Positions 1 through 32,430 of a stretch of 64,000 nt of DNA are shown here, one piece after another. A program made the position numbers and the translations under genes. Each line of letters begins with the position of its first letter. Within the stretch, counting starts at the first letter, position 1. The stretch comes from an uncultured bacterium (GTDB taxonomy: Bacteria > Omnitrophota > Omnitrophia > Omnitrophales > Abzuiibacteriaceae). Under the pieces are notes generated by a model. The model had not been told where the DNA came from. It made no database searches and saw only the letters and a program-made list of their open reading frames with translations. The stretch lies in the NCBI GenBank assembly GCA_964387845.1, contig CAYLXA010000004.1:32001-96000 (forward strand). The letters are read 5' to 3'.

Positions 1-51
1 TCCGCGTTTATTCTGAATACGCTCTTCTCTCAATTTACGGTCACGCAGCAC

Positions 52-9000: not shown

Positions 9001-12000
9001 CGCGGTGAAAATGTTAGCGAAACCGATCAGCAGGAGTTGAAAACAGCGTTCGGCAAATACGAAGGCATTTTGTACTCTGAGACCGTCACCAAAATCATTG
9101 AAGACGAACTTCGGACGCAATCTAGCGACTTAGCGGATGAAGTTATGCCTATTTATCGCAAGCAAGTGAACCGGATCAGCGCTTTCAGAATGAAGGATGA
9201 AAGTCAGGCTCATTTTGATCATATGGCAGCAGAAATCGATAAATTGGAATCCAAACTTGCTTCCGAAATTAATGAAGAGAGAAAGAAACAGATCAAAGCT
9301 AACATTACAAGTTTGCGTATGGCGCTCAAGGGTGTAGAGGAAATCGCGACCCGAATTCAAGAAGAAGGCCCGGGGGCCGATACGCCAGCTTTTGTGCGCA
9401 GCGGCATGATGCACTTCGTGCGCCGCTATTTCAAAATGCTGCTCAAACTTTCGCTGTTGGGTAAATTTGGTTCAACTGAGAAGGAAATGAATGAAGCGAT
9501 CACACTCTTTTTCTTGCCCTTGATGCTGCACGAAGTGACGGAACATCAGATTGACCACACCAAGATTGATTACTCAAAAGATCTGAAAAAATATGTCAAA
9601 ACAGAGGGCGCTAACGACCTTGGAAAAATGTTCCGCGACATTCTGGCGGAAGGCACAGCAGCCAGTTTGGTTGCACTTTTGCCTGAAGAAACACGTTTGA
9701 AATTAGCAAAAGTTTACGAAGCAGCCGGTGAAGAGCTTCATCAAGCCGGTATTTATGCGCGCAAAATGGCGGTGTACAACAAAATGGCAGCCAATCCGGA
9801 GCTGGGGCTCGATCTTTTCTCGGCAGATCCGGCACGTCAAGTGAAAGCGGCAGAGCCGATCGTGGATTATTTTAAGACCACCTTCATTAACTATTACTTT
9901 GAAGCCATCGCTGCAATCCGCGCCGGCAATCCTTATTTGGCCAAGGAAATTCTGGAGCAGGTCTATTTCAAGAACCGGAATGAAAAAGGAGATCTCAAGC
10001 CGGAAGCTGATGTCAGCGATTTCGCTTTCGAGGAAGCGATGCGCTATGTGCGTGAAGCGATCCGGCTGCACGGCGATTTAAAACTTTCGCGCGAAGACAG
10101 AGAAAAACAGAGCAAGGATGTTGCCGATGCCATGGATCAACATATTAATACAACGATCAGCCGCTTGTTCCAGGCCTATGCCGGACGGCAGGACTGGGGC
10201 CAGGTAGTTGAAAACACATTGAGCGCCGCTGGTGCACCGGGCCAAGATCAGTCACAGCAGCGCATTCAGGGGGAAGCCGAAATAGTTACAAAAGGCCAGC
10301 GCGAGCTCTTTGAGAAACTAACGGGTCAATCAATTGATGAACAAAATGGACAGCCGCAAGCATTGACCGATGAAGGTTTGGAAGAACTCGCCAATGGATT
10401 TAGGAATTTTAAAAATAACGGCGGCAATCCGGATCCTCAAAAGGTGCGCGCCAAAGACTTCAAAGCAGTCAAAGCCGTTTGGGTCGATCCAGGCAAAAAT
10501 AATGAAATGCTGAAATCGCTCATGGAAAAATTAGGCATGCCATTGACGCCTTTTGTGCGTCTCGTGGTTGATCAAAAGGATTGGCCGGCATTTGAAAAGA
10601 AATTAGGCCACGATGGTTCACAGGCTTTTGCCGAAAACCGGGAGCGATTCCCTGAAAACTCTGTCTTGGGCAGAGCCGGTATTCTGATCACGCAAGCCGG
10701 CAATAGCGAAAGCACGATGATTGTCGTGCTGCACGAATTGACCCACTTATTGGATTATTTAAAAACACAGGCAAATCATGAAGCAAATGCGATCGACGGC
10801 CTTGTCATGACCGAAGCGCTGCGTGAATTTAAGGCCTTTGTTCCGTTGGTGCTAGAACACAAAATGACTTGGCAGGGTGTTTATCAGGAATTTGCCAAAG
10901 AAGATAAGCATGGCTATTTGAATCAATATTATGACCAGGCCGGAATCAAAGACGCGGATGAAAGAAAGAAGTTGAGGGTGCGTCATTTGGCCATCATTTC
11001 CGCCCTCATTCAAATCATGGGGCTTTACACAAAACAGTGGGATGGCAATCCAAAGGTTATCATGAATCTGCTTCAGAGCGTGACAACGCCTCAGGAATTA
11101 TTCAGCCAATTTTTGGCCCTCTTGCCGGAGCTTGATTTGGAGGGAAAATCGATTCAGCCCCTTGTAAAGTCATTCTTTGACGGCTTATTGGATGAAAGGC
11201 CGAAGGCCGTAAACCAGACGCCCGAGAATGAACAGATTTTTAAATCTTATATGGACTTTTCCGGCAGTCTGTTGAGCCATCAGAATCAAGATGTCAGCGA
11301 GGCGGCTTTAACCGCGTTCCTTGATTATCCGGATATGCCTTACCGCAAAACCTATATCGAGGAACATTTACGAGCGGTTCCGAATCAGGTCAACGCAAAG
11401 GCCGTATTGGATGCGACCGAGAAGTTTGTGAGCGACCTTGAAGCCGCAGCTACAGAGGAAGAAAGAAAGCAAGTTGTGGAGTCTGAGAAGCAAGCTGAAG
11501 AACCGTCGCCGATTCTGAACCGTCATTTTGGGAAATTTGTTGTAGAGCTTTCAGGCATGCCGACCGCGGAAGATTTTCAAAGAATGACTGCTTTTGATTA
11601 TGAATTTGCCGTGACCGCCAAGCTGGATGAAAATAAAGAAAAGCATTTTTATATGACCATCGGTACTTTCGATGAAGCGGTGGAAACTTACGGCAAAGAA
11701 AATCTAGCCGGCTTTTATCACACGCATCCGGCGGGTGAAGAAGGAGAGGTTTCAGCAATTCCAAGCGGCATTGCGACCGGAGATGAAATCTACAACTATG
11801 ACGGCATTAATCAAATTTTACCCGGAACTTATGCGCATATTGGTACCGAAAAAACACTAACGCGTTATTTCAAAATTGATGCGAATCAGGCAAAGGCTTT
11901 GGATTTCATGATTGATGCCGGCGAGAAGGTCGCGGATATTGTGGGTGATTTGCGCGAAGTTCGCACGAAAGCCGGTGAATTCTTGAAGGCCGGCAAACTT

Positions 12001-18343: not shown

Positions 18344-18370
18344 GTGTGGGTAGAGTTTTGTCTACCCACA
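18344..18370. promoter_or_regulatory. 9 bp-stem inverted repeat (gtgggtaga gttttg tctacccac) upstream of the RHS gene.
   Basis: Read directly. Function unknown (operator or terminator). Confidence 0.3.
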
Positions 18371-18469
18371 GTAGATAAACCGCACTTTTTTGCTCTCCAA
18401 CATTGATTTTGTTTGACAGAGTGTCTATCTTTTTCTCACGAAGCAAAATTTCTTTCGGGAGGAAAGAAC

Positions 18470-21400
18470 ATGAAGCCAAAATCAAAAGCAGTCCAAAAAA
18501 TTGTCGCAGGAATTCTGATCTTCTTTTTTGCGTTAACCGGCATTTTTGAAAATGCTGTCGGGGTCGATTTAAAGAAAGCTTTTGCGCTTCCGGGTTCATT
18601 TTTACCGGTCGCGGGTGCCCTGGGCGACCTCCAATCCCAGGCTTCCGTTGCCAAACCTTTCCATACGGATCTCTTCACGGGTTCCGCTCAGTTTGCAATT
18701 CCGGTTTTTACGCCTCCCGGCCGCAAGGGGATTGCACCCGAAGTTGCGATTGGTTATTCCTCATCGGGTGGTAACTCGTGGCTTGGGGTTGGCTGGAATT
18801 TGGGAAATGAATATATTCAGCGCAGCACGAAGCGAGGCGTGCCTACCTATCAAGACAATCAAGACACATTTGATTTGATGGTAAAAGGTGTTCAGTCGGA
18901 ACTCGTTAAAATTTCTTCTACCGAATATCACGCGCGATACGAATCCGGCGAGTTCATGAAAATCGTATTTCAGAATGATTTCTGGAAAGTCACGGACAAA
19001 TCCGGCACTCAGTATTTCTTTGGGCAAACCGAACAGGCAAAAGACCGTAACTCGCTTGGTATTTTCTCATGGCAGCTTGAAAAGGTGAGGGACGTGAGTG
19101 GAAACACAATTACTTACACTTATACAAAGGACCAAGGCGAGCTTTATCCATCGCGGATTGATTACAATGGGAATGAAGATGAAAATTTTGCACCCACGCA
19201 CTCGGTTGAATTTGTGACGGAGGCAAAGCCGGATATCACATTTTCTTATATAACAGGCGTCAAGGTTTCGAATGCGCGGCGGCTTAAGGAAATCTTGGTG
19301 AAGGTGAATGGCGCTCTTGCGCGGAAATATCTTTTAACGTACGAGCAGTCGCCGGTGGTTGGCCGCTCGCGCCTCAAGACTGCTAAGGAATGCGGAACGG
19401 ACGGCACAAGCTGCCTTCCGCCTACGACTTTTACCTATCAGGAGCAAACGTTCGGTTTTAAGCCGGGTGTGATCTGGAATCAGCCGAACCTGACCTTGCG
19501 AACAATTGCAAACGGCCTCAATACGGAAACCAGCTCGACGGATGATATCGACGGCGATGGCTTCCCGGATCGTCTTCTCAAATTAGACAGTCTTTGCACC
19601 CAACAGCTTTGCCAATGGCAGGCGTTTAAAAATACGGGTGCAGGATTCGAATTAGCGCCTTCTTTGCGCGGACCCATTCAAGGTTGGGCAGACCAAAGTT
19701 ATGCAGCGATTCGTGGTGATTCGAACGGTACTTCGTCGTATGTCAATTTAATTGATATCAACCGCGACGGAAAATTAGACCGTGTCGTGCAGGGGACTTC
19801 CAACAATGTGGGCGGTGGAAATGGTTGGGCGCTTCAAATCAATAACGGCATCGGATTTGAGAATCAAATTTATTTCGGGCCAACGATGGAAAATACTCAG
19901 CTTCGGACCGGCCAATGGTACCACCCAGATGGTTTTGATCCCGATACTTATCGGGTGCTTTGGGATGCGACGGACATGAACAGCGATGGTTTTGTTGACC
20001 GGCTTGCTACCGTCAATAACAACACCTGGGGCGTTTATTGGGGCTCCGGCACCGGTTTTTCTTCTGTGGTTTATAACTGGAATAACGTTCAAGGAACTCC
20101 GAATTGGAATTCCGTCCGCGATTATGATTCCGATACCGGCCACGGAAGCTCTGATTTAATGGATATTAACGGTGACGATTTGCCGGACCGGATCATCGGC
20201 GGTGGGGTTTGGAATCCGGGCGGATCCACCGGATTTGCAATTCAATACAATAACGGACGCAGCTTCGAAAATTTACAGTATCTCGGGATACTTCCTTCAG
20301 GAACAACCTCAGGCGTCACGATGGACATCGACGGCGGTTCGCACAGTCATCCGAACACGACACACATCCTGCTGGATGTAAATCAAGACGGCCTTCCGGA
20401 TCGTGTTAGAAAGATTTCAAATACGCAGTGGAATGTTCATTTCAATACCGGAAACGGGTTTGTCACGAGCGGTGTTGCGTGGGGGCCGATTGAAGGTTTT
20501 TCAGATTCCGATAAAACGGTCCGCCGCACGGAGGGCGATTCGGTCACGGTTGATTATTTTGACATCGATGCGGACGGGTTTCCGGATCGAATCGTCTCCC
20601 ATCCATCCGAAGCCAAGTGGATGGTCCAGCTTGCGTACGAAACAGTGCCCGATCTTTTACGTCAAGTGAATAACGGCAGGGGTGGTGTAACGACGGTGAC
20701 TTACAAACCGGCGACGCGCTATTACAACGGCGGCGGCGATGGAATCGCGGATTTGTCTTTTCCATTAATGACGGTCGAAAGCGTGACGCAGGATGACGGT
20801 TTCGGCAATCTCATCACAACACAATATGAATATGCGGACGGCAAATACAACGCCGCAGAACGCGAGTTCCGAGGCTTTAACCGGGCGCGCGTAATTGATG
20901 CAGATGGTAATTACACAGACACCTGGTTTTATCAAAGCAATCCCTTAAAAGGCAGGCCTTATCTCACAGAAACCCGCGATGTGGGTCAGAATTTTTATTC
21001 CCAAACTTGGAACGAATGGCAAACCATCGAACCCGCCGGAATGTCGGGTGTTGAATATGCTCGCGTGATCAGTACGACGAATTGGATTTATGACGGCAAT
21101 GAGACTTTCAAATTCGGCCAGATGAATTACTTATATGATCAGTATGGCAATGTCATCGAAACTTTAAACTGGGGCGAAATTGAACCGGACGGCTGGAATC
21201 AGTTTACGGGTGATGAAATCCGCACCAAAATTCAATATGCCTATAACACCGCGCTTTGGATTATGGACAAGCCGAAACATGTGGAAACTTACGACAAGGA
21301 TTGGAACCGGCTACAGGAGAGCTGGCTTTATTATGATTCAAACCTGAACTTTCACACACCGCCCACGAGAGGGCTGTTAACAAAGAAAGAAGAACTCATT

Positions 21401-24400
21401 GCTTTGGGAGGTGCGAAAGTCAAAACCGAGATGACGTATGACCCATTCGGAAATCTCCTTACCGTGAAAGATGCGAAAGGATTTGTGACGACGAATGAAT
21501 ATGACCCAACCTTTAAACTCTATCTCACAAAAGTCACGAACACCTTGGGCCATGCGCAGGAATTTACGTACGATCCTTTGATTGCGCAAATTACGCACGT
21601 CAAAGACCAAAATAATCAAATTTCACGCACGATTTACGATCCGCTCGGGCGGGCCGTGAAAGTGATTTCGCCGCTCGATTCCGATAGCGCGCCGACTCGA
21701 GCAACTTTTTACGATTTATCGGTTTTTCCAAACCGGATGGTAAGTTATGTGAAAATAGATTCCGATGCGCCCGCGCTTTCAATCGACGGCAATCCGCACG
21801 CCGGCTACCTGACCAGTTATTCATTCTCAGACGGCTTGGGGCGCGAAATCCAAAAGCGCAGCCCGGCTGAAGCTTCGAATCAACAAGTGGTTTCGGGGCT
21901 TGTTACGTATGATTCGCGCGGGCAGGTGAAGCGGCAGTATGTGCCGTATTACGCCGATTTCCGGACGACTTACGCCACACCGCCCACGAATTTTCCGTAT
22001 GCCGAGTTTGATTACGATGCGGTGGGCCGCAGAATTAAAACCACTTATCCCGACGGCGCATTCGCCACAATTCAATTTGATGATTTCACAAAAGTTCTCA
22101 CGGATCCAAACGGCCACGAAAAGCGCTACACGCAGGATGCTTACGGAAATCTAATCAAGGTCGAGGAGTTCAATCAGAGTCAAACTTACACGACGCGTTA
22201 TGAATATGACCGCTTGAATCGATTAATCAAAACCACGGATCACTACGGCCACGTCACCGAAGTCGAATATGACATGCTGGGCCGCAAGACAGCGATGGCC
22301 GATCCCAATATGGGCATTTGGGCTTACACGTATGACGCTAATAACAATTTGCTTACACAAACGGATGCCAAAAGCCAAACGATCACGTTTCAATATGATA
22401 ATTTAAACCGCTTAACTCGCAAAACCTATCCTGACGGTACGCATATTGACTACACGTATGATTTTTGCCCGCTTGAAGCTTGCGGCTGGCAGCCTGAATC
22501 AAACGTTTCTGTTGGTAAATTAGTCAAAGTCTCTGACCAATCAGGCATTCAAACTTTCCGGTACGACCAGCTCGGCAGAGTCATTCAAGACAAGAAATCC
22601 CTGGATAACGGTGAAGATTACACCTTCACCCGAATCTATGATCCGCAGGGAAGAGTGACTTCCTTAGAATATCCGGATCAAGATATTTTAAATCTTACTT
22701 TCAATAATATGGGCGAAGCTGAAACCTTAACCCTTATCCCTTACTCCTTACCTCTTGTGTCCATTATCCAAAACGTCAACTACAACCCAAGCGGCCAAAT
22801 CACGAAGATTGAATTCGGAAACGGTGTCGTGTCAGACTATACGTATAATCTCCAGACGCTTCGGTTAGAACGTCTCTTAACCCAGAACCAAGCGCAGGTT
22901 ACACTCCAAGATTTCACTTACGAGTTCGACAACGCAGGAAACGTCCAGTCCATCACGGATGCCGTCAACACCAACACGCAATCCTTTCTGTATGATGATC
23001 TAGACCGTCTCACGCAAGCCACGGGAAACTACGGCACCCATATCTTTGAATATAACGCCATCGGCAACATGACCCGTAAACACAATGCCTATTTAAATTA
23101 CACAGACCCTGCACATCCCCACGCTGTCACGCGTTATCAAAAAGGCGCTGAAGTGATTCAATATCAATACGATGCCAACGGTAATATGACCAAGCGCGGC
23201 AGTGATACCATTCTCTATGACTTTGACAACCGGCCCATCCGGATGGACCGTACCACAACCACAGGCGGCTGCGATGTCTATCCCGTGCCGATGGATTATT
23301 ATCAGACAACGCAATCACCCGGAACTGGTGATGACGGCAATGCGCTTCAAGCGCCAAGCCCACAGCCTGTAGCCGGCAGCCCGGGGCTTGTAGCCCGTAG
23401 CCAGCAGCCTGAAGCCGAAAGCGTGGCGCAAGGTAATCGGTCGACTCAAATCATGTATCCTTGTCCCAACCCCGGCCAAACCACCACCCACATGTTCGCC
23501 CAGTATGTCTATGACGCCTCGGGCCAGCGTGTGAAGAAAATCACGGACAACAAAATCGAATATTATCTTGGCAAGGATTATGAACTTAACTATACTAGCG
23601 ACCCGGTAGGAATGGGTTCTTTCTCAACCCGAAAAGCCTTCTTCTTGGGTGAGGCGCGCATCGCGGAATTTGAACAAATCCAAAATGCGGAAGGCGTGCC
23701 CCCGCATATTCGTTTCTTCCACGGCGATCACCTAGGTTCCACCAACATCATCACCAACGAACAGGGCAATCAAACCCTGCTCATGGAATATTTGCCGTAT
23801 GGTGAAGTGAAACTCCGCGTCGGAACAGATCCGGTCCAAAATACTTTCACAGGCCAAAAGGAAGACCTAGAATCCGGGCTCATGTACTACAACGCCCGCT
23901 ACTATGACCCGAAGATCGGTAGGTTCATTCAAGCTGATTCCATCGTTCCAAACGCGACGGATCCTCAAGAGTTTAATCGTTACAGCTACGTCAACAACAA
24001 CCCCATCAAATTCACCGACCCAACGGGACATAAGAAGAAGAAATGGTGGAAGAAGTTATTTAAACGTAAATCCACAAAAGGCGGCTTATTTGGAGCTATC
24101 ATTGGTGGAATTGTTGGTTCGATTGTGCCCGGAATTGGCACTGTCGCAGGAGCAAGTATTGGTGGTGCAATTGGTGGCGGAATTGGCGGCGGAATTGATG
24201 CCGCACAAGCTGGAGGTAATTTTGGTCAAATAGTACGAGGTGTTGTGTCAGGTGCCGTTGAAGGGTATCTGATTGGGCAAGTTATTGGTAATGTTACTGT
24301 CGGGGTCGGGCAATGGCTGGCTGCGATGAAGAATCCCGCAGCAGGTTTTGGGCATTATGGGATAAATGCCAACGATGTGCTCGCGAAATATGGAGGCAGA

Positions 24401-24916
24401 GTCCATATTAACGGAATGGGTGTTCCATACGAACAAGCACTTGCCGATGCAAATAGTCTTGATGCTGCTCTGTTTTATAACCCATCGAATGGCTTTATTG
24501 CAGATTTAACAGAATCAGCTCTACAGAAATTTACCGGGACAAGTTCGTTAGGCAGAGGTTTGCGACATGCGCTTGGCCCTTACGTTGCGCGTGGCGGTGA
24601 AGCAACAATCTTTGCACATAGCCAAGGAGCCTTGATTGCATCAAATGCAGTTACAAGTTCTTTGTTGGGCGGATCGTCGCTTCGCGGCGTAGCTATTGAA
24701 TCTTTGGGTGGAGCTGCCAATTCGTTTACGGCAAAGTTATTTGCTAGAGCTGCCGGAGCCACTTTTAATTCAATAAGTACCCCTAATGATATTGTTGCCG
24801 CATTAGCTCAGCCGGAATTAAATCCAATTAAATTTACCAGAGCCATGGTAGGAGGCATTGCAAGCGGCGGAAGAGATCATGATTTTCGTCATTATCTGGA
24901 GATTAAACGAGGATGA
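18470..24916 (+). CDS. RHS/YD-repeat polymorphic toxin with N-terminal signal/TM, FG-GAP-like repeats (DxDGDGxPDR), YD repeats and a DPxGH RHS core. The C-terminal domain has a Lys-rich segment, a glycine zipper and an A-H-S-Q-G hydrolase-like motif.
   Basis: The start was chosen at the ATG at 18470, which follows a GGAGG site. YD repeats include YTYDANNNLLTQTD and RYEYDRLNRL. The core reads RYYDPKIGRFIQADSIVPN ... NNNPIKFTDPTGH. The tail reads KKKKWWKKLFKRK, GAIIGGIVGSIVPGIGTVAGASIGGAIGGGIGGGI and IFAHSQGALIA. Confidence 0.85.
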   Translation: MKPKSKAVQKIVAGILIFFFALTGIFENAVGVDLKKAFALPGSFLPVAGALGDLQSQASVAKPFHTDLFTGSAQFAIPVFTPPGRKGIAPEVAIGYSSSGGNSWLGVGWNLGNEYIQRSTKRGVPTYQDNQDTFDLMVKGVQSELVKISSTEYHARYESGEFMKIVFQNDFWKVTDKSGTQYFFGQTEQAKDRNSLGIFSWQLEKVRDVSGNTITYTYTKDQGELYPSRIDYNGNEDENFAPTHSVEFVTEAKPDITFSYITGVKVSNARRLKEILVKVNGALARKYLLTYEQSPVVGRSRLKTAKECGTDGTSCLPPTTFTYQEQTFGFKPGVIWNQPNLTLRTIANGLNTETSSTDDIDGDGFPDRLLKLDSLCTQQLCQWQAFKNTGAGFELAPSLRGPIQGWADQSYAAIRGDSNGTSSYVNLIDINRDGKLDRVVQGTSNNVGGGNGWALQINNGIGFENQIYFGPTMENTQLRTGQWYHPDGFDPDTYRVLWDATDMNSDGFVDRLATVNNNTWGVYWGSGTGFSSVVYNWNNVQGTPNWNSVRDYDSDTGHGSSDLMDINGDDLPDRIIGGGVWNPGGSTGFAIQYNNGRSFENLQYLGILPSGTTSGVTMDIDGGSHSHPNTTHILLDVNQDGLPDRVRKISNTQWNVHFNTGNGFVTSGVAWGPIEGFSDSDKTVRRTEGDSVTVDYFDIDADGFPDRIVSHPSEAKWMVQLAYETVPDLLRQVNNGRGGVTTVTYKPATRYYNGGGDGIADLSFPLMTVESVTQDDGFGNLITTQYEYADGKYNAAEREFRGFNRARVIDADGNYTDTWFYQSNPLKGRPYLTETRDVGQNFYSQTWNEWQTIEPAGMSGVEYARVISTTNWIYDGNETFKFGQMNYLYDQYGNVIETLNWGEIEPDGWNQFTGDEIRTKIQYAYNTALWIMDKPKHVETYDKDWNRLQESWLYYDSNLNFHTPPTRGLLTKKEELIALGGAKVKTEMTYDPFGNLLTVKDAKGFVTTNEYDPTFKLYLTKVTNTLGHAQEFTYDPLIAQITHVKDQNNQISRTIYDPLGRAVKVISPLDSDSAPTRATFYDLSVFPNRMVSYVKIDSDAPALSIDGNPHAGYLTSYSFSDGLGREIQKRSPAEASNQQVVSGLVTYDSRGQVKRQYVPYYADFRTTYATPPTNFPYAEFDYDAVGRRIKTTYPDGAFATIQFDDFTKVLTDPNGHEKRYTQDAYGNLIKVEEFNQSQTYTTRYEYDRLNRLIKTTDHYGHVTEVEYDMLGRKTAMADPNMGIWAYTYDANNNLLTQTDAKSQTITFQYDNLNRLTRKTYPDGTHIDYTYDFCPLEACGWQPESNVSVGKLVKVSDQSGIQTFRYDQLGRVIQDKKSLDNGEDYTFTRIYDPQGRVTSLEYPDQDILNLTFNNMGEAETLTLIPYSLPLVSIIQNVNYNPSGQITKIEFGNGVVSDYTYNLQTLRLERLLTQNQAQVTLQDFTYEFDNAGNVQSITDAVNTNTQSFLYDDLDRLTQATGNYGTHIFEYNAIGNMTRKHNAYLNYTDPAHPHAVTRYQKGAEVIQYQYDANGNMTKRGSDTILYDFDNRPIRMDRTTTTGGCDVYPVPMDYYQTTQSPGTGDDGNALQAPSPQPVAGSPGLVARSQQPEAESVAQGNRSTQIMYPCPNPGQTTTHMFAQYVYDASGQRVKKITDNKIEYYLGKDYELNYTSDPVGMGSFSTRKAFFLGEARIAEFEQIQNAEGVPPHIRFFHGDHLGSTNIITNEQGNQTLLMEYLPYGEVKLRVGTDPVQNTFTGQKEDLESGLMYYNARYYDPKIGRFIQADSIVPNATDPQEFNRYSYVNNNPIKFTDPTGHKKKKWWKKLFKRKSTKGGLFGAIIGGIVGSIVPGIGTVAGASIGGAIGGGIGGGIDAAQAGGNFGQIVRGVVSGAVEGYLIGQVIGNVTVGVGQWLAAMKNPAAGFGHYGINANDVLAKYGGRVHINGMGVPYEQALADANSLDAALFYNPSNGFIADLTESALQKFTGTSSLGRGLRHALGPYVARGGEATIFAHSQGALIASNAVTSSLLGGSSLRGVAIESLGGAANSFTAKLFARAAGATFNSISTPNDIVAALAQPELNPIKFTRAMVGGIASGGRDHDFRHYLEIKRG
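23356..23425. repeat. GC heptad array (gtagccN / gcagccN, about 9 units), in-frame inside the RHS gene. It encodes an APSPQPVAGSPGLVARSQQPEAES linker.
   Basis: Units: cacagcct gtagccg gcagccc ggggctt gtagccc gtagcca gcagcct gaagccg. Confidence 0.6.
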
Positions 24917-25260
24917 GAATATACCTAATTGCAACAATTGCTGTTCTAAGTTTGTTAACGCATGGCTGTAGTACAATTTCTTTGTTTATGCCCGCTGATC
25001 GGGAGGAATTGCATCGGTATGCTTTATGGAGGAAACAACAATTAGCTCTATTTGATCCTTATCTAGGAAAGACATCTAAAGAAATTGAGCTCATTTTTGG
25101 AAAACCTAAAAGAGTGGGCAAAACAATGCCTGGCACTTTTGAGCTCCCATATGATTTTGTGTGGGAGTATGAGTTATTGCCAATAGGAGAATCTAAAACG
25201 TATAAATTTTTCTTCAAAGGAGATCGGCTATCGTGGGTGGAAGTGCTTGGTCAGCGGTGA
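24913..25260 (+). CDS. Small lipoprotein-like protein, candidate immunity protein for the RHS C-terminal toxin.
   Basis: Overlaps the RHS stop (ATGA). N-terminal signal with LLTHGCS. Immunity role is suggested by position only. Confidence 0.45.
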   Translation: MRIYLIATIAVLSLLTHGCSTISLFMPADREELHRYALWRKQQLALFDPYLGKTSKEIELIFGKPKRVGKTMPGTFELPYDFVWEYELLPIGESKTYKFFFKGDRLSWVEVLGQR

Positions 25261-25372
25261 ATATATTTCCGAAGAGACGCGTGCCAGGCGCCAAAAGGGT
25301 TAGGTTAACTACAAATGCCTCATAAGGCAGAAACTCATTTCTATTTGACGGTAATAACCGAGAGGAAATTTC

Positions 25373-25840
25373 GTGAAACCAAAATACCTATTTCTATTTA
25401 GCATATTTTTATTAGTAGCCGGATGCGCTAGTTCTAAACAATATGTTCCATTAGCTGATTTATCTCGCCCTGTAGATAATTCGCAAAGCCGGATTATTAT
25501 AGTTCGACCAACCATTTTTGGATCGGCTATACGCATGAAAGTTCGTGAAGGTATCCGCGCCATTGGTGTGACAGGCCCTAATAGTTTTCTTGCGTGGGAC
25601 CGGGAGCCCGGGCGCGCATCAATTGTGAGTAATGCTGAAAATGATGATGTGTTGGATCTCGAATTGGAAAAAGGGCAAACCTATTATGTTCAGCAGCATA
25701 TTCGGATGGGGATTGTTACGGCGCGCAATCAGCTTGAATTGTTGCCTGAAGAAAAAGGAAAGAATTTCTTAAAAAAGTGTAAACCTCCGAAAGTTGAATT
25801 GAAAGAAGCATTAAAAGACGATTTTGTTTCGGTTCACTGA
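25373..25840 (+). CDS. Lipoprotein, hypothetical
   Basis: GTG start. Lipobox LLVAGCASS. Confidence 0.5.
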   Translation: MKPKYLFLFSIFLLVAGCASSKQYVPLADLSRPVDNSQSRIIIVRPTIFGSAIRMKVREGIRAIGVTGPNSFLAWDREPGRASIVSNAENDDVLDLELEKGQTYYVQQHIRMGIVTARNQLELLPEEKGKNFLKKCKPPKVELKEALKDDFVSVH

Positions 25841-25863
25841 CGAGTCTAAAAGGAGAGTGAAGA

Positions 25864-26289
25864 ATGTATAGTTCTAAAATGCGGTTTATGAGTTTGTTTT
25901 TGTGCTGCACCATGCTGAGCGGTTGCGCCACCATGTTTGGAAGGCAACATGACGAACAAGCCGTCACGTTTGATTCTAACGTTCAAGGCGTGGATGTGAA
26001 TTGTTCCGGGAAGCGCACCGTAACTCCAGGAAACATTCCCCTTATGCAGAGCAAAAATCATTCGTGTACTGCAGAAAAATCCGGATATGAGAAGAAGGCT
26101 TTTCAAATCAAATCAGGAACTTCATGGGCTGGTTTTGGTTATTCAACAGCAATCAATGGAGCTCTTTGGGGTTGGTGGACTCTTGGGATCGGAGTCGGGA
26201 TTGGCTGGCTGATTGATTGGCCTTCCGGCGCCATGAGAGATTTTAAGGAGGATAGTCTTTATATTGAAATGAAGCCTGTAAAGATATAG
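25864..26289 (+). CDS. Lipoprotein with a C-terminal Gly/Trp-rich membrane segment, hypothetical.
   Basis: Lipobox MLSGCAT. Motifs GWWTLGIGVGIGW. Confidence 0.5.
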   Translation: MYSSKMRFMSLFLCCTMLSGCATMFGRQHDEQAVTFDSNVQGVDVNCSGKRTVTPGNIPLMQSKNHSCTAEKSGYEKKAFQIKSGTSWAGFGYSTAINGALWGWWTLGIGVGIGWLIDWPSGAMRDFKEDSLYIEMKPVKI

Positions 26290-26364
26290 CGATCGGCTCT
26301 ATTGACCCTCCCACACACCTAATCCCCCCTTCATTTTTATCTGGAAGTGACGATAACTTAATAC

Positions 26365-26470
26365 AATTTCAAAATTCAAATTTCAAATCTCAAAACACTG
26401 TAAATATTGAGCATGCCTTGAGTTGGGCAGTTCTTGAATTTTGATATTTGAGATTTGAATTTATTCTGTT
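26365..26470. repeat. AT-rich inverted heptad-repeat element, copy 2 of 4.
   Basis: aatttcaaaattcaaatttcaaatctcaaaa ... ttttgatatttgagatttgaattt. Confidence 0.6.
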
Positions 26471-26494
26471 ACCATATTTCACCGCGGGGTTCTC

Positions 26495-26881
26495 ATGAAA
26501 AAGCTTCTGATCGTGGACGACGAAGAGGATATTGTTGATTTCCTGAGGGAATTTTTCGAAAGCCGCCCCGAAAAGTACGAAATCAAAACCGCCCACAACG
26601 GCCCCGATGCGCTCAAGATTTACCAGTCGTTCATGCCCGACTGCATGCTCCTCGACATCAAGATGCAGCAGGCGAAGGGCAAAATGAACGGCCTCGACGT
26701 CCTCCGCAAGGTCCGCCAGACCGACGCCAAAACCAAAATCATCATGGTCACCGCGATGGACAGCCGCGAAATGATCGGCGAAGCCATCCAGGCCGGCGCC
26801 AACGACTACATTGTGAAACCGCTCTACCTTGACTACCTGGAAAAGACCGTCCTCGCCAAGCTCGCCGAACCGGGGAAATGA
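26495..26881 (+). CDS. Response regulator, receiver domain only (CheY-like).
   Basis: LIVDDEEDI, LLDIKM, KPL receiver signature. Confidence 0.8.
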   Translation: MKKLLIVDDEEDIVDFLREFFESRPEKYEIKTAHNGPDALKIYQSFMPDCMLLDIKMQQAKGKMNGLDVLRKVRQTDAKTKIIMVTAMDSREMIGEAIQAGANDYIVKPLYLDYLEKTVLAKLAEPGK

Positions 26882-28305
26882 TCTACGCGATCGGATCTTT
26901 TGCGATTACGGTTTTTAATTTCATTCTTTGGTTCCTAACCTTTTTTGGCCGCAAGTTAAGCGACCTTGCGCGCGCCTATTTTTGGTGGTCATTTTTTATC
27001 GCAATTTGGGCGTTCGGTTACGGCATTACGCTCGCCGGGTTTTTTGATTACGGCACAACGCTTGCCTGGAACCGGTTTTGCCAGTCGATGGCAATGCTAG
27101 TAGCGCCTTTCTTCTTTAAATATTGCGCGGTTTTGATTGACGAATATCCGAAATACGAAAAAATATTTCTTTCATATCTGACGCTCTCGGTCCTGATCGC
27201 CGCGGGCATTTTCGCAACGCCGCATTTTATCAGCGACCTTTGGTCATTCGGCATTTACCGGTATCAACCACTGGCCGGCCCATTTTATTTCCTGTATGTC
27301 AGCTTGTTTGCGCTTTGTGCGTTGCATGGATTCGCGCTTGTTTTGTCGCGATATAAGCAATTCGATGGCATTAAGAGAAGTCAAGCGCGGCTTTTTTTGA
27401 TTGCGACAGGAACATCTTATTTTGGTGGTTTTACACTTTTCATTCAGGCGCTCAGGATCCCACTTGATTCTTTTGGTATTTTTCTCGGCTTGACTTACGT
27501 GCTAATTACCGGCTACGCGATTCACAAATATCAATTTCTGGATTTTCCATCACTATTACGCACCAAAGAAGTCGTCGCGATCCACAATGAAAAACTCATG
27601 CTGCTCGGATTATTCTCTTCCAGTATTAATCATGAGCTCAAAAATCCTTTGTTTATGCTCCGCGAATTTGCGAAACGCCTTTTGACGATTGAAGCCGTCG
27701 CAAAGGGCGGCGAAGCGTCCGATATTGTCCGCAAGATGTCTGCTCAGATCAACCGGATTTCGGAGCTTGTGGAGCGTTCGCGCGATTTCATCCGGCCTGG
27801 CGGCGAAAATGCAATTGAGGATATTGACCTCGGGCAAGTGGTGGAAAACGCTTTGTTTTTTGCATCGACGGAGATGAAGTATCAAAATATCGAAGTCAAA
27901 ATTGATATTCCCGAAGGTCTGCCGGTCTTGCGCGGCGACAAAAGCCAGTTTGAAGTCATTTTTTTGAATTTGATTGTGAACGCCTATCACTCTATGCCGA
28001 ATGGCGGGAAATTGACGATTGAAGCACGAAGCGTCCCTCACCCTTTATCCCTCTCCCTCAGGGAGAGGGAGGAGCGAAGCGAGGGTGAGGGTGGTATTGA
28101 AGTAATCATTTCCGATTCCGGAACCGGTATCTCAAAAGAAAACCTCAAAAATATCTTCAAACCCTTCTACTCCACCAAAGGCAAACAAGGGACGGGCCTT
28201 GGCCTCCATATTGTGAAAACCTTGGTCGAACAGAATGGCGGCAAAATCTCAGTCGCAAGCGAAGTCGGGAAGGGCACACAATTCAAATTGGAATTTAAGG
28301 CATGA
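26878..28305 (+). CDS. Membrane sensor histidine kinase, paralog 1 of 4. Carries an in-frame REP-like insert in the HATPase loop.
   Basis: Multi-TM N-terminus. H box HELKNPL. N box NAYHSM, G1 SDSGTGI, G2 GTGLGL. Insert at 28035-28091. Confidence 0.8.
   Translation: MIYAIGSFAITVFNFILWFLTFFGRKLSDLARAYFWWSFFIAIWAFGYGITLAGFFDYGTTLAWNRFCQSMAMLVAPFFFKYCAVLIDEYPKYEKIFLSYLTLSVLIAAGIFATPHFISDLWSFGIYRYQPLAGPFYFLYVSLFALCALHGFALVLSRYKQFDGIKRSQARLFLIATGTSYFGGFTLFIQALRIPLDSFGIFLGLTYVLITGYAIHKYQFLDFPSLLRTKEVVAIHNEKLMLLGLFSSSINHELKNPLFMLREFAKRLLTIEAVAKGGEASDIVRKMSAQINRISELVERSRDFIRPGGENAIEDIDLGQVVENALFFASTEMKYQNIEVKIDIPEGLPVLRGDKSQFEVIFLNLIVNAYHSMPNGGKLTIEARSVPHPLSLSLREREERSEGEGGIEVIISDSGTGISKENLKNIFKPFYSTKGKQGTGLGLHIVKTLVEQNGGKISVASEVGKGTQFKLEFKA
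28035..28091. repeat. REP-like GC palindrome, in-frame in HK1. Encodes PHPLSLSLREREERSEGEGG.
   Basis: ccctcaccc tttat ccctctccc tca gggagaggg ... gggtgaggg. Confidence 0.8.
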
Positions 28306-29735
28306 ACATTGAAGAATTTTGCAGATTAACAGGACTGGTCAATTTTGTTTGTTGTTTGTTATTTGCAATATTCATTTTTTCAAAGAATCCGCGAGAAAGA
28401 ACCCATCAGATTTTTGCTTTGTTTTCATTTTTTGTTGCGCTGTGGTCATTCGGCTATTTTTGTTTTCATTCTTATAATGCCGACTACGAATCCGCAGATT
28501 TTTGGATCCGGTTCTTAACACTCGGTTGCTGTCCCATTCCGGCTGTTTTTCTGCATTTCGTGGTAACGCTTTTACAATTAAATGATCGCCCTCTCTATAA
28601 ATGGCTTGTTGGCTTTGCCTATATTTTCTTTTTCTCGTTGATTTTATTCTCACCAACTTCGTTAATGGTCGCAAGTCTTGAACCTAAACATTGGTACCGT
28701 TTATGGCCTAATCCGGGTTTTTTGTGGCATTTCTATACTGCAGGATTTTTTATCACCGTATTATTTTCTCATTACCTTTTATTTAGAGCCGCGTTTCACT
28801 CTACAGGAGTTCGTCGAAAGCAACTAATGCTGGTTGCCGTGGGAACTTTGATTACGTTTTCCGGCGGTTCTACCAATTTTTTTCTTTGGTATGATATCAC
28901 AATCGCTCCCGTGTTAAATGGGTTTGGAATTCTTTACATTATTATTGTTTTCTATGCGGTTCTGAATTATCAATTTTTACAGGTGGAAGATGTCCTGGCG
29001 ATTCATAGAGATAAACTGATGCTGCTAGGGCTTATGTCATCGAGTTTGACGCATGAAATCAAAAATCCTTTGTTTCTAGTCAAAGGCTATACGGATAAAA
29101 TTACGGCGTTGGCGCAAAAGAAAAACGACACCGAAATCGCAGATGCCCTCCGCCATCTTTCAAGCCAAGTTTCCCGAATGAGCACGCTTGTTACGCGGCT
29201 TAGCGATTTCGGAAAGCCAAATCCTAACCCGGGCAAACAGGAAGATGTGGATGTGGCCCAAGCACTCGAGGATGCCTTATTTTTTGCAGAGCAAGAACTC
29301 AAGCATCACAACATTGAAGTTGTAAAGAAAATCGAGCTCAATCTGCCAAAATTGAAGGGTGATAAGAGTCAATTTGAGGAAATATTCTTGAATTTAATTA
29401 TGAATGCATTCCATTCTATGAAGAATGGCGGGAAATTAACCATTGAAGCAAAAATCCCTCACCCACGCTCCGCGTTACCCTCTCCCTCAGGGAGAGGGGA
29501 GGGTGAGGGCGGTATTGAAGTAATTATTTCCGATTCCGGAACCGGAATATCGAAAGAAAACCTCAAAAATATCTTCAAACCCTTTTACTCAACGAAAGGC
29601 AAACAAGGGACGGGCCTCGGCCTTCACATCGTCAAAACTCTCGTCGAACAGAATAGTGGCAAGATCTCAGTCGAAAGCGAAGTGGGTAAGGGAACAAGAT
29701 TTAAACTTTTATTCAACGCAGAACTCAGAGTATGA
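28302..29735 (+). CDS. Membrane sensor histidine kinase, paralog 2 of 4. Carries an in-frame REP-like insert.
   Basis: HEIKNPLF H box. Same HATPase motifs as HK1. Insert at 29456-29509. Confidence 0.8.
   Translation: MNIEEFCRLTGLVNFVCCLLFAIFIFSKNPRERTHQIFALFSFFVALWSFGYFCFHSYNADYESADFWIRFLTLGCCPIPAVFLHFVVTLLQLNDRPLYKWLVGFAYIFFFSLILFSPTSLMVASLEPKHWYRLWPNPGFLWHFYTAGFFITVLFSHYLLFRAAFHSTGVRRKQLMLVAVGTLITFSGGSTNFFLWYDITIAPVLNGFGILYIIIVFYAVLNYQFLQVEDVLAIHRDKLMLLGLMSSSLTHEIKNPLFLVKGYTDKITALAQKKNDTEIADALRHLSSQVSRMSTLVTRLSDFGKPNPNPGKQEDVDVAQALEDALFFAEQELKHHNIEVVKKIELNLPKLKGDKSQFEEIFLNLIMNAFHSMKNGGKLTIEAKIPHPRSALPSPSGRGEGEGGIEVIISDSGTGISKENLKNIFKPFYSTKGKQGTGLGLHIVKTLVEQNSGKISVESEVGKGTRFKLLFNAELRV
29456..29509. 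repeat. REP-like GC palindrome, in-frame in HK2. Encodes PHPRSALPSPSGRGEGEGG.
   Basis: ccctcaccc ... ccctctccc tca gggagagggg a gggtgaggg. Confidence 0.8.
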
Positions 29736-31081
29736 ACGCGTACAATTTATCCGTCTTATTTTTTGCTTACAGCGCCTTTCTCCTAAGCTTGCTGCTACTT
29801 GTTAAGAATAATGATCCCCTCAATCGCAGTTTTTTTATATTTAATATTTTTGTTTGCATGTGGGGATTTAACATATCCTGGATGCTGAATAGTTCAATTT
29901 CTTATGAAGAAGCCATGCTTGCGTCGCGTCTAGCAAACTTGGGAGCACTCTTTATTCCCCCGAGCTGGCTGGGATTTGTGTGTGCTTTTCTCGAAATAAA
30001 AGAAGAAAAATCGAGAATCATTAAGTTGATTTATATATTGAGCGCCTGCGTCGCTTTATTTAGCTTTAGCCCGCTTTATGTTTCTTCAGTAAAATCGTTT
30101 TCAGACTTCAAGTATTACACTGTAGCTGGCCCGGTCTATCATTTATTTACAATCGAATTTACACTTGTTGTCATGTATGGCTTTTATCATTTATTTAAAG
30201 CGCTCAAGGGGAAAACCGGTGTCAAAAGAACCCAACATATCGTATTCACATGCGCCATCGGTTTCGGTTTTGTTGGTGGCTCGCTGACATTTTTGCCGGT
30301 TTACAACATCCCGCTTCCTCAGTATGGATTATTTTTACTGCCGCTCTATCCGTTCTTAATGACATTTGCAATTATGAGGCATGGATTCTTGGATCAAGAT
30401 GATATTCTTGCCATCCATAAGGACAAGCTCGCGCTTTTGGGGCTCATTTCATCCAGCCTCAATCATGAAATCAAGAATCCTTTATTCTTGCTCAAAGGTT
30501 ACGTTCAGAAGATGGAATTAAGCACGAAAGATCCTTCTTTACCCAAAATGTCGGAACAAATCAGCCGGATGAGCAACTTGGTGGAGCGCCTGGGTGAATT
30601 CGCGAAGCCGGGCTCCGGGGCCAAAGAAGAGGTATATCTCGAAAAAGCTATTGATAACGCTCTGTTTTTTGCGATGCAAGAACTCAAATATCAAAATATC
30701 GAGGTGAAAACCGATATTCAGAAGCCGCTTCCCAATCCCATCGGCAATCGCGGCCAGTTTGAGGAAATTTTCCTCAATCTAATTGTGAATGCGTTTCATG
30801 CGATGTCGCCGGGCGGAGGCAAATTAACGATATCCGCTATATCCGAAATCCGAAATTCGAAATCCGAAATAATAATCACGATTTCCGACTCAGGATGTGG
30901 AATCCCCAAAGACCGCCTCAAGCGCGTATTTGAACCCTTTTATACCACCAAAACCGGCCGCGGCACCGGCCTCGGCCTTCACATCGTGAAAACCTTGGTC
31001 GAACAGAATGACGGCAAAATCTCGGTCGAAAGCGAAGTGGGCAAAGGCACGAAATTCAAATTGGAATTCAGCACAAAATGA
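29732..31081 (+). CDS. Membrane sensor histidine kinase, paralog 3 of 4.
   Basis: HEIKNPLF. NAFHAM. SDSGCGI. GTGLGL. A tccgaaa heptad x4 lies at 30833-30871, in the same loop position as the HK1/HK2 insert. Confidence 0.8.
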   Translation: MNAYNLSVLFFAYSAFLLSLLLLVKNNDPLNRSFFIFNIFVCMWGFNISWMLNSSISYEEAMLASRLANLGALFIPPSWLGFVCAFLEIKEEKSRIIKLIYILSACVALFSFSPLYVSSVKSFSDFKYYTVAGPVYHLFTIEFTLVVMYGFYHLFKALKGKTGVKRTQHIVFTCAIGFGFVGGSLTFLPVYNIPLPQYGLFLLPLYPFLMTFAIMRHGFLDQDDILAIHKDKLALLGLISSSLNHEIKNPLFLLKGYVQKMELSTKDPSLPKMSEQISRMSNLVERLGEFAKPGSGAKEEVYLEKAIDNALFFAMQELKYQNIEVKTDIQKPLPNPIGNRGQFEEIFLNLIVNAFHAMSPGGGKLTISAISEIRNSKSEIIITISDSGCGIPKDRLKRVFEPFYTTKTGRGTGLGLHIVKTLVEQNDGKISVESEVGKGTKFKLEFSTK

Positions 31082-32430
31082 ATCCATTTAGTCTCGCATT
31101 ATTGTTTTTCGCTTTTTGTTCGATTCTTATCGGTTTATTTGTTTTTTTAAAGCGTGATGATTACACCGGAAAGCTTTTTTTCTTCTGGAATATTTTAATC
31201 GCGGGCTGGGGAATTCCTGCTTCAATTGCATTCACTAACGAGGTAAGTTATCAAACCGCCTTATATGGAACTCGAATCGCTCATTTTTCATCTGTTCTAA
31301 TACCCGCAGCATGGCTTCATTTCGTTTTAGTATTTGTAGGAAAATTTGAACAAAAGAAAACATTGGTTCTATTTTTCTATTTCTATAGTTTGATTATAGA
31401 TTGCTTTGTTTTTACACCTTTTTTTATTCCTCATTCAGAACCCATGGTGGGATTTCGGTATTATCCAATGGGAGGAGTAGCCTATCACTTTTTTTCAATC
31501 GAATTCTTTACGGCAGTGCTTTTGGCATTTTATGAATTAGTAAGAGCCTATCAAGCTAGCTTTGGGGAAAAGAAAAAGCGCCTGGGTGTTTTAACATTAG
31601 CCACTTTTCTTGCTTACCTCGGTGGTTCTTTAACGTTTCTTCCTTTGTATCATATCCCATTTCCACAATATGGTTTATTCTTAATGCCGATTTATCCATT
31701 TATGATGGCATATGCAATGATTCGCCATGGCTTGCTTGACTCCGAAGAAATTCTTGCTATTCAAAAAGATAAACTGGCTCTACTTGGTCTTATGACTTCA
31801 AGTTTAAATCACGAAATCAAAAATCCACTGTTTTTGTTGCGCGGCTATGTTCAAAAGGCCAGAGGCGGAGAAGTTCAGTCGATTGATAAAATGACGGAAC
31901 AGATCGACCGGATCGGCAAGCTGACCGAGCGTTTAAGCGAATTCTCACGGTCAGGATCTGCTGTGGCACAAAAAGAAGAAGTCGATATCGCTCAAGCAAT
32001 CGAAAATGCACTGTTTTTTGCCAATCACGAACTGAAATATCATAATATTGAGATCAAAAAGGAAATCGATCCCAACCTACCCAAAGTTCTCGGCGACAAA
32101 GGCCAATTCGAGCAAATTTTCCTTAACCTAATTATGAACGCTTTCCACGCGATGTCGGGCGGAGGGCGATTGACGATCTCTGCTAAATCCGCACTCCGCA
32201 CTCCACACTCCGCAATTGAAATAAGCATCTCCGACTCTGGATGTGGTATTCCAAAAGAACAGCTTAAAAATATCTTTAAACCGTTCTATACTACGAAGGG
32301 CAAATCCGGCACCGGCTTGGGCCTGCATATTGTTAAAACCTTGGTCGAGCAGAATGGAGGAAAAATATCGGTTCAGAGCGAGGAGGGAAAAGGTACTGCT
32401 TTTTTGTTAAGTTTCTTAATTAACAGCTGA
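31078..32430 (+). CDS. Membrane sensor histidine kinase, paralog 4 of 4.
   Basis: HEIKNPLF. NAFHAM. SDSGCGI. An actccgc heptad x4 lies at 32188-32214, in the same loop position. Confidence 0.8.
   Translation: MNPFSLALLFFAFCSILIGLFVFLKRDDYTGKLFFFWNILIAGWGIPASIAFTNEVSYQTALYGTRIAHFSSVLIPAAWLHFVLVFVGKFEQKKTLVLFFYFYSLIIDCFVFTPFFIPHSEPMVGFRYYPMGGVAYHFFSIEFFTAVLLAFYELVRAYQASFGEKKKRLGVLTLATFLAYLGGSLTFLPLYHIPFPQYGLFLMPIYPFMMAYAMIRHGLLDSEEILAIQKDKLALLGLMTSSLNHEIKNPLFLLRGYVQKARGGEVQSIDKMTEQIDRIGKLTERLSEFSRSGSAVAQKEEVDIAQAIENALFFANHELKYHNIEIKKEIDPNLPKVLGDKGQFEQIFLNLIMNAFHAMSGGGRLTISAKSALRTPHSAIEISISDSGCGIPKEQLKNIFKPFYTTKGKSGTGLGLHIVKTLVEQNGGKISVQSEEGKGTAFLLSFLINS

Follow-up and report, generated by a model that had tools for sequence, protein, structure and literature searches.

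An RHS toxin gene and an overlapping lipoprotein gene

The window analyzed here is a stretch of 64,000 nucleotides (nt) from a contig of an uncultured bacterium (CAYLXA010000004.1, positions 32,001 to 96,000), and the system in question is a gene for an RHS toxin precursor together with the small lipoprotein gene that overlaps its stop codon. The toxin ends in a predicted hydrolase domain, and the lipoprotein is the candidate immunity protein for it. A first reading of the letters and open reading frames (ORFs), made without database searches and referred to below as the sequence-only reading, had proposed both parts. The ORF list gives the long frame as 18413..24916 on the + strand from a TTG codon (2167 amino acids, aa). 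The ATG at 18470 was taken as the likely start because it is preceded, 7 nt upstream, by the sequence gggagg, and the product from this codon has 2148 aa. Residues are numbered from the ATG throughout; these numbers equal the TTG-based ones of the sequence-only reading (1880-2167) minus 19. The toxin ORF is followed by frames at 24913..25260 (115 aa), 25373..25840 (155 aa), and 25864..26289 (141 aa). An identical 2148-aa product is found among public gene calls (P0137; L019), and L019, a public assembly, has the same four genes in the same order as the window. The features that carry the argument are as follows, A1 being the alignment of the domain family described below.

18470..24916, + strand: gene for a single-chain TcB/TcC-type RHS toxin precursor of 2148 aa, ATG start, stop codon included
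24356..24913, + strand: predicted minimal α/β-hydrolase toxin domain, 186 aa, residues 1963-2148, of a family without an existing model
24620..24622, + strand: codon of Ser2051, predicted nucleophile in A-H-S-Q-G, invariant in A1, at the elbow position
24788..24790, + strand: codon of Asp2107, predicted triad acid, invariant in A1, in the loop after strand 136-140
24878..24880, + strand: codon of His2137, predicted triad base, invariant in A1, in the loop between the last two helices
24913..25260, + strand: candidate cognate immunity gene for a 115-aa lipoprotein, its start overlapping the toxin stop (ATGA)

The C-terminal domain is a predicted serine hydrolase

The C-terminal domain surrounds the motif IFAHSQGALIA (residues 2047-2057, nt 24608-24640). 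The sequence-only reading could not place it in a named toxin family, and the searches were in agreement: the domain gave only sub-threshold Pfam matches to Ysc84, Abhydrolase_6, and Abhydrolase_8, and nothing above threshold in NCBIfam or, using phmmer, among the PDB sequences. The Ysc84 match (E ~3e-4, below the cut-off) was treated as chance. A word-indexed search of 5.8 billion proteins found 0 relatives with the single domain sequence and only 10 with a profile, and a set of 1.84 billion cluster representatives, searched exhaustively with phmmer, yielded 108 relatives at E<=1e-3, 17 of them at E<=1e-10 and the best 42% identical. In nearly all 108 the match ends within a few residues of the C-terminus, and 56 of the 82 members long enough to judge have an NPxxxxDPxG[HYF] motif no more than 250 aa upstream of the domain. 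The SpvB/FG-GAP/TcdB_midN/RHS architecture of the window protein is also that of two long members (P0004 and P0012) and, apart from an SpvB match, of a third (P0003). Other RHS relatives with the domain are decorated with Laminin_G_3, fn3, or CBM60. The toxin domain also follows the core on differing N-terminal carriers, and it occurs in an orphan array (L017) and as a remnant (L013).

Forty-six of these sequences were aligned (A1). Five columns are invariant (Asp2012, Ser2051, Gly2053, Asp2107, and His2137), and a further five residues are at least 90% conserved (Gly1982, Asn2004, Glu2015, Gln2052, and Pro2119). The order Ser2051, Asp2107, His2137 is that of nucleophile, acid, and histidine in the sequence, and all three are present in 46 of 46. 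When given A1, AlphaFold produced a model with a mean predicted local distance difference test (pLDDT) score of 86.6 and a predicted TM-score (pTM) of 0.84, as compared to a pLDDT of 39 in a single-sequence run. In the model, helices alternate with five strands. Ser2051 occupies the nucleophile-elbow position, between strand 83-88 and helix 90-104, Asp2107 follows the last strand (136-140), and His2137 lies in the last loop. In a structure comparison the model scored 12.4 against the Obc1 hydrolase domain (160 residues aligned), 11.9 and 11.6 against cutinases, 10.3 against both hornet phospholipase A1 and a rumen lipase, and 9.9 against both an acetyl xylan esterase and the mycobacteriophage protein LysB. 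The A1 profile matched a CE5 acetyl xylan esterase (E=9e-4) and a cutinase (E=1.4e-3) at their G-Y-S-Q-G elbow, and individual members gave sub-threshold matches to DUF676, Tle3, DUF900, and Abhydrolase_6. As modeled, the family is a divergent, minimal branch of the α/β-hydrolase fold, since a Foldseek search of the model against the PDB yielded no significant match (best E=0.014). The fold and the predicted triad make it very probable that the domain is a serine hydrolase of this fold.

The nucleophile elbow named by the sequence-only reading is thus borne out by an invariant serine at a strand-helix junction, and structure prediction of the C-terminal domain returned a catalytic hydrolase fold as opposed to a non-catalytic one. 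The same reading had called the domain α/β-hydrolase-like and Tle-like; the first description holds, and the second survives only as a functional analogy, with no Tle Pfam model matched. Like the Tle1-4/Tli pairs, the window encodes a predicted GxSxG serine hydrolase that would act on the envelope and adjoins a gene for a small exported lipoprotein. Russell and colleagues are said to have described in 2013 that Tli proteins are periplasmic or lipoproteins. Unlike Tle1-4, which are far larger, the window domain has 186 aa and five strands, fits none of the Tle Pfam models, and shows no linkage to a type VI secretion system (T6SS), VgrG, or PAAR among the window neighbors scanned or in the related loci listed. 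Among the 46 relatives, Tle3 (PF24322) gave sub-threshold partial matches in 11 (best E=8.6e-4), and the 25 families listed for them do not include DUF2235 (Tle1). Cutinase and the CE5 esterases (PF01083) are structurally nearest, with a likeness at the level of fold and elbow motif, but identity is only 11-14% and the Pfam Cutinase model is matched below threshold in 2 of 46 (best E=0.024). The window family differs further in its extra invariant residues, found in a YNPSxG loop and an IADxTE helix, and in its deployment as the C-terminus of a polymorphic toxin. Zhang et al. 2012 described Tox-ABhydrolase-1, -2, and -3 at the C-termini of classical polymorphic toxins, with a predicted attack on lipids (PMC3482391). 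Tox-ABhydrolase-1 corresponds to DUF2235/Tle1 and does not match the window domain; the comparison with Tox-ABhydrolase-2 and -3 is one of descriptions, in which the immunity families reported for them are SUKH, Imm66, and Imm69 and not a BLIP/BamE-like lipoprotein. The literature on the HSQG motif and on 'cutinase-like' polymorphic toxins was searched without a specific result. The window family, which counts at least 108 cluster representatives and has a clear predicted triad, is one of toxin domains that neither Pfam nor NCBIfam annotates.

A scan of genome contigs with the domain found only distant stand-alone homologues in Archangium and Vitiosangium (L001-L008). These are 315-aa proteins with the motif LFAHSQGALV (at ~9617-10564 in L003) that lack both an RHS part and a glycine zipper. 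The ORF downstream of them has no lipobox and no Pfam match. Their arrangement suggests that the enzyme is deployed differently in myxobacteria.

The downstream lipoprotein is a candidate immunity protein

The signal sequence of the 115-aa protein ends in LLTHG-C, and its homologues carry canonical lipoboxes such as LMLSGC, LSSSGC, and LLFMGC. The sequence-only reading had taken the gene, which overlaps the toxin stop, to be placed as an immunity gene would be, and the pairing recurs: six other loci (L009, L014, L013, L010, L017, and L018) encode a homologue right behind the toxin domain, those of the first four being identified through A2, an alignment of the lipoprotein family, and a hidden Markov model (HMM). 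The locus with the closest toxin homologue (L009) encodes a downstream lipoprotein 36% identical to that of the window (E=1e-18). The look-up also worked in reverse and in this way gave two of the six loci, as the gene upstream of lipoproteins P0135 and P0124 ends in the hydrolase domain in both cases (A1 HMM E ~1e-51). Invariant in A2 are the Gly-Cys pair, Trp39, Gly52, a G-x-P motif, and a W-x-Y motif. A second toxin subgroup (L012 and L016) has a different lipoprotein of ~205 aa downstream, likewise overlapping the toxin stop, and these two lipoproteins are homologues (E=3.7e-10). Judged by their predicted signals, an exported lipoprotein gene follows the toxin wherever downstream sequence is available, and the lipoprotein family tracks the toxin subgroup.

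While the 115-aa family matches no Pfam family, the A2 profile matches PDB entry 3d4e, a 'putative beta-lactamase inhibitor protein', over 60 residues (E=3.9e-5), which makes a likeness to BLIP/BamE (SmpA_OmlA)-like proteins a candidate one. BLIP proteins block a serine hydrolase by sitting in its active site, and a BLIP-like partner would suggest a simple mechanism of serine-hydrolase inhibition. The toxin relatives begin with signal peptides, as the window protein is predicted to do, which is consistent with a need for periplasmic protection. From gene order and family conservation it is likely that the 115-aa lipoprotein is the cognate immunity protein of the hydrolase. The matching lipoproteins would then be a family of candidate immunity proteins, and models of the two families could name many RHS C-termini now called 'hypothetical'.

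Several of the related loci have features of their own. A full polymorphic-toxin array occupies L017 (1-9378). Its main SpvB/TcdB/RHS gene (2857 aa) comes first, encodes a different C-terminus, and has a small gene of its own downstream; next are an orphan gene for an RHS C-terminus, accompanied by a DUF6188 gene, and then an orphan with the hydrolase domain and two tandem A2-family lipoproteins. As read from its gene order, this orphan C-terminal/immunity cassette is classical polymorphic-toxin behavior. Right behind the immunity-type lipoprotein gene of L013 is a 53-aa ORF (13699-13860) that matches only the C-terminal end of the hydrolase (A1 HMM 138-164, E=5e-8) and was probably left behind, in a displaced position, by an earlier toxin cassette. 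Four loci encode 'mini-Rhs' proteins of 414-466 aa (L009 6001-7245, L014 606-1883, L015 4001-5401, and L017 7251-8609), composed of their own signal peptide, the last part of the Rhs core only (FHxDHLGS...DPxGH), a linker, and the hydrolase domain, and so without a shell to enclose the toxin. An A2-family lipoprotein comes next in L009, L014, and L017, and the L015 contig ends at the toxin gene. The relatives come from metagenomes, and the lipoprotein of L010 is labeled 'Candidatus Omnitrophota bacterium' by NCBI; for the window, too, a lineage like the Omnitrophota is plausible.

A single-chain B-C cocoon as carrier

The remainder of the toxin gene, up to the hydrolase domain, divides into the following parts.

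18470..18562, + strand: predicted Sec signal peptide or signal anchor, residues 1-31 (MKPKSKAVQKIVAGILIFFFALTGIFENAVG), read from the sequence
18677..19147, + strand: SpvB / TcB N-terminal domain, residues 70-226 (Pfam PF03534, E=2e-24)
20375..20932, + strand: FG-GAP-like β-propeller repeats (residues 636-708) and TcdB middle/N-terminal region (residues 687-821), from Pfam
21986..23788, + strand: RHS/YD-repeat shell, about residues 1173-1773 (PF05593, NCBIfam, and PDB alignments)
23789..24031, + strand: Rhs-associated core with a putative aspartyl autoprotease motif, residues 1774-1854 (TIGR03696)
24032..24070, + strand: polybasic/aromatic K/W-rich stretch KKKKWWKKLFKRK, residues 1855-1867, start of the predicted cargo (from sequence)
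24071..24310, + strand: glycine-zipper, membrane-like segment, residues 1868-1947 (composition and motif counts)

The predicted signal, identified by eye and not by a predictor, shows a basic n-region followed by a hydrophobic core of 16 residues, with A-V-G preceding the putative cut. Residues 71-134 match TcdB1 and SpvB sequences in the PDB, the TcdB_toxin_midN model (PF12256) matches residues 687-821 with E=8.5e-22, and YenB aligns over residues 708-825, which is the propeller/midN region. The shell comprises 6 stretches of RHS_repeat (PF05593, E=3.8e-41), is also recognized by the NCBIfam models YD_repeat_2x (TIGR01643, E=3.7e-26) and RHS_core, and aligns with TccC3, Tse5, RhsA, several T6SS Rhs shells, and 'teneurin-like proteins' in the PDB. 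The Rhs-associated core model TIGR03696 is matched from end to end (positions 1-76 of 76, E=1.7e-22), and the best PDB sequence matches for the whole protein are TcdB2-TccC3 fusion constructs (E=3.6e-31). Because it combines SpvB, TcdB_midN, RHS repeats, and a full core with TcdB2-TccC3 as the best match, the gene is, in its domain content, one for a single-chain TcB-TcC-type (B-C) RHS cocoon. The identification of an RHS polymorphic toxin in the sequence-only reading therefore stands, as does a Tc-B-like N-terminal half; the FG-GAP repeats that it had listed there reach only a sub-threshold match (FG-GAP_3, PF13517, residues 636-708, E=7.7e-5).

Within the core, RYYDPKIGRFIQAD, which holds RFIQAD, and NNNPIKFTDPTGH align with the equivalent motifs of YenC2, and the core motifs also align with those of TccC3, Tse5, and an Rhs-family protein. 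By homology, Asp1823 (in RFIQAD) and Asp1850 (in DPTGH) are the putative autoprotease aspartates. Since the core aligns with structures of cleaved proteins whose deposited chains (4igl_B, 8h8a, 4o9x, and 8cp6_B) stop at the aligned DPxG position, cleavage is predicted after His1854 (between nt 24031 and 24032, DPTGH from KKKK). Natural TcC variants include some with a basic residue at P-1 (PMC7861908). When searched alone, the Rhs core (23447-24100, + strand) found the salivary gland surface proteins SGS1 (E=2.9e-13) and SGS4 (E=1.9e-12) as its best PDB matches, ahead of bacterial Tc/Rhs structures.

The window protein resembles the Tc toxins of Photorhabdus (TcdB2-TccC3) and Yersinia (YenB-YenC2) in its SpvB domain, FG-GAP-type propeller, TcdB_midN region, RHS/YD shell, and DPxG-ending core, and in a basic cargo of ~30 kDa. 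Unlike these, it is a single polypeptide with a predicted Sec signal, no TcA-type Pfam domain was found in the neighboring window proteins scanned (64 kb of the genome were seen), and the locus has a conserved immunity-like lipoprotein gene, which Tc loci are reported to lack (PMC7861908, Song et al.). Its cargo is a predicted hydrolase plus a membrane segment, not an enzyme of the ADP-ribosyltransferase type. Tse5 of P. aeruginosa (RhsP1), which aligns over the shell and core of the window protein, is likewise an autoproteolytic RHS shell around a cargo with hydrophobic or membrane-active segments, and its shell carries a protein that otherwise aggregates or inserts (PMC10684867). It differs in being linked to T6SS/PAAR, in a shell without a TcB half, and in a 16-kDa pore-forming cargo without an enzyme domain. 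No T6SS, VgrG, or PAAR genes were present among the scanned window neighbors or in the related loci listed. What is probably new here is the toxin and candidate-immunity family; the SpvB/RHS carrier is of a known kind.

The predicted cargo opens with a basic stretch and a glycine zipper

The predicted cut would leave a cargo of 294 aa (residues 1855-2148) with a mass of 29.7 kDa, an isoelectric point (pI) of 9.99, and no cysteine. This length lies inside the 201-400 aa spanned by TcC hypervariable regions (PMC7861908), and the mass and pI meet the rules for cargo of the TcB-TcC cocoon (at least ~20 kDa and a pI of at least ~8; PMC6868009). The C-terminus quoted in the sequence-only reading is present in the translation, where NNNPIKFTDPTGH is followed directly by KKKKWWKKLFKRK, a Gly-rich stretch, IFAHSQGALIA, and finally HYLEIKRG.

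The long GxxxG segment that had also been pointed out exceeds what its composition would give. Residues 1868-1947 are 34% Gly and contain 15 GxxxG motifs, as compared to 8.4 +/- 2.0 in 2000 composition-preserving shuffles (15 were reached in 3 of 2000), and 21 small-xxx-small-xxx-small motifs, as compared to 7.8 +/- 2.6 (reached in 0 of 2000). The GxxxG density is 18.8 per 100 aa in the zipper and 0.7 in the rest of the protein. One 19-residue window of the segment has a Kyte-Doolittle mean of 1.79, and the Pfam model Gly-zipper_Omp matches below threshold (E=0.043). Glycine zippers have been described in toxin translocation or as depolarizing toxins, as in Tde1, EsxX, and CdzC/D (PMC12744356, PMC10240207, PMC5380434). 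The linkers of relatives are typically 100-150 aa long and run from a K/W/F-rich amphipathic opening (HSWKSFWKKW, HFWKKLFNSIGNF, or GFFFKKLFKKIGKF) into hydrophobic or Gly-rich segments, with a Gly content that ranges from 0.04 to 0.30 across the family and a varying number of hydrophobic segments. The three-part cargo of K/W stretch, zipper or hydrophobic segment, and predicted hydrolase is, as compared across these sequences, a family trait.

Proposed mechanism and alternatives

These parts can be joined in the following scheme. Sec would export the precursor, and the putative aspartyl autoprotease (Asp1823 and Asp1850) would cut after His1854, with the 294-aa cargo staying inside the shell. 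The cargo would be released at the target envelope, where the K/W stretch and the zipper may insert into the membrane or anchor at it, and the hydrolase (Ser2051-Asp2107-His2137) would cleave envelope lipid esters, either of phospholipids or of lipoprotein acyl groups, and so damage the membrane. The translationally coupled 115-aa periplasmic lipoprotein, with its candidate BamE/BLIP-like fold, would bind and block the hydrolase, possibly by occlusion of the active site as in BLIP. We regard this overall scheme, a Sec-exported B-C cocoon with a membrane-seeking esterase as cargo and a lipoprotein as antidote, as reasonably probable; that the substrate is a membrane lipid has about an even chance.

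Four observations weigh against the scheme. No TcA or T6SS partner that would deliver the cargo to its target was found in the window. The lipobox of the window lipoprotein, L-T-H-G-C, is atypical, its His at -2 being outside the usual [LVI][ASTVI][GAS]C. The hydrophobic linker is slight or absent in some family members, and therefore the idea of a membrane anchor cannot hold for all of them. Finally, the closest structures include esterases that act on thioester, cutin, acetyl-xylan, and mycolyl-arabinogalactan substrates besides lipases. In one alternative the system is as proposed and the hydrolase attacks a non-lipid envelope ester or amide in the manner of CE5 esterases or LysB, the candidate substrates being O-acetyl groups of peptidoglycan or polysaccharide and peptidoglycan-linked lipids. 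This is unlikely; the membrane-seeking linker and the structural neighbors among lipases and phospholipase A1 point toward lipids, though no observation made here tells the substrates apart.

Another possibility, and a distinctly unlikely one, is that the zipper is the real toxin, a pore-forming or depolarizing peptide carried in the RHS shell like Tse5-CT, EsxX, and CdzC/D, with the hydrolase as an accessory or receptor-binding part. In its favor, the zipper exceeds what shuffled sequence gives, other family members also have hydrophobic or Gly-rich linkers, RHS shells chaperone membrane-inserting cargo such as Tse5 (PMC10684867), and glycine-zipper toxins and translocation motifs are documented (PMC12744356, PMC10240207, PMC5380434). 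However, conservation sits in the hydrolase domain, with Ser, Asp, and His invariant, while the linker varies widely in sequence, Gly content, and hydrophobic segments, with none in some members. The stand-alone Archangium homologues keep the hydrolase without the zipper, and the conserved partner is a lipoprotein with a soluble domain and a BLIP-like profile, which better suits an enzyme inhibitor than a membrane-embedded antidote.

Although the best PDB matches (TcdB2-TccC3 and YenB/YenC2), a 29.7-kDa cargo of pI 10 that fits the TcA translocation rules, and the existence of natural B-C fusion genes (PMC7861908) would suit the B-C part of a classical anti-eukaryotic Tc toxin with its TcA encoded elsewhere and a lipoprotein that is not an immunity protein, this is very improbable, since no TcA-type domain was found in the scanned window neighbors, the 4412-aa ORF included (64 kb only), Tc loci are reported without immunity genes (PMC7861908) whereas here the toxin domain is accompanied by a lipoprotein family, orphan cassettes included, and the protein and its relatives carry predicted Sec signal peptides whereas at least one classical Tc toxin is released by cell lysis (PMC10847048).

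The preferred scheme of exported cocoon, esterase cargo, and lipoprotein antidote can be taken further by joining its parts with the mini-Rhs loci. In this extension, a self-inserting membrane lipase would work without TcA or T6SS, from a Sec-exported B-C cocoon or a mini-Rhs protein at the surface of Omnitrophota-like cells, against neighboring or prey/host bacteria, and a BLIP-fold lipoprotein would plug its active site. The extension is speculative and, taken as a whole, rather unlikely; if true, a Tc-type cocoon would serve in conflict between bacteria independently of TcA, and both the toxin family and the immunity family would be new. The combination of a B-C cocoon, a Sec signal, and an immunity-like gene is a tractable case for such TcA-independent interbacterial use, because surveys of Tc loci report no immunity genes. 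The family may also bear on how small uncultured bacteria interact with other cells, since its relatives are metagenomic and one is labeled Candidatus Omnitrophota.

Neighboring genes

Behind the candidate immunity gene lies one further feature.

25373..26289, + strand: two further lipoprotein genes, with lipoboxes LVAGC (25373-25840) and LSGC (25864-26289)

The sequence-only reading had noted these two genes, and their lipoboxes agree with it; a conserved partnership does not emerge, as neither the second nor the third window lipoprotein has a homologue in any other toxin locus examined. For this reason they are, on comparison of the loci, neighbors and not demonstrated partners, and were left out of the system. 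The 25373-25840 product has a weak match to DUF2846 (E=6.6e-6, below the cut-off). The third lipoprotein (25864-26289) has a hydrophobic tail rich in Gly and Trp, GTSWAGFGYSTAINGALWGWWTLGIGVGIGWLIDW, at its end, and NCBIfam gives it a weak match to the Leptospira family LEPBI_I2678 (E=0.009). A search of the 64-kb window for orphan cassettes and for other copies of the toxin domain found none. A promoter and terminator scan of 17700-26600 gave sites no more numerous than in shuffled sequence.

Upstream of the toxin are a very large uncharacterized ORF, def, a peroxiredoxin gene, a UPF0047 gene, and a gene for a TPR protein. The large ORF (1-13290, + strand) has at least 4412 aa; the frame runs open to the window's first base, and so the gene is longer. 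It has no Pfam match at E<=0.001 and a charged composition rich in Ala, Glu, Leu, and Lys, and on both grounds it was rejected as a TcA-like partner. Downstream of the toxin region come the gene of a response regulator and then a series of HisKA_7TM kinases: four tandem histidine kinases of ~450-477 aa, with the regulator, occupy 26495-32430 (+ strand), and a fifth kinase of 813 aa lies at 36756-39197 (+ strand) beside a ketoacyl synthase. A kinase, synthase, and regulator neighborhood also flanks the closest toxin homologue, in L009, where the shared genes (a ketoacyl synthase beside a HisKA_7TM kinase) are only 33-45% identical to those of the window.

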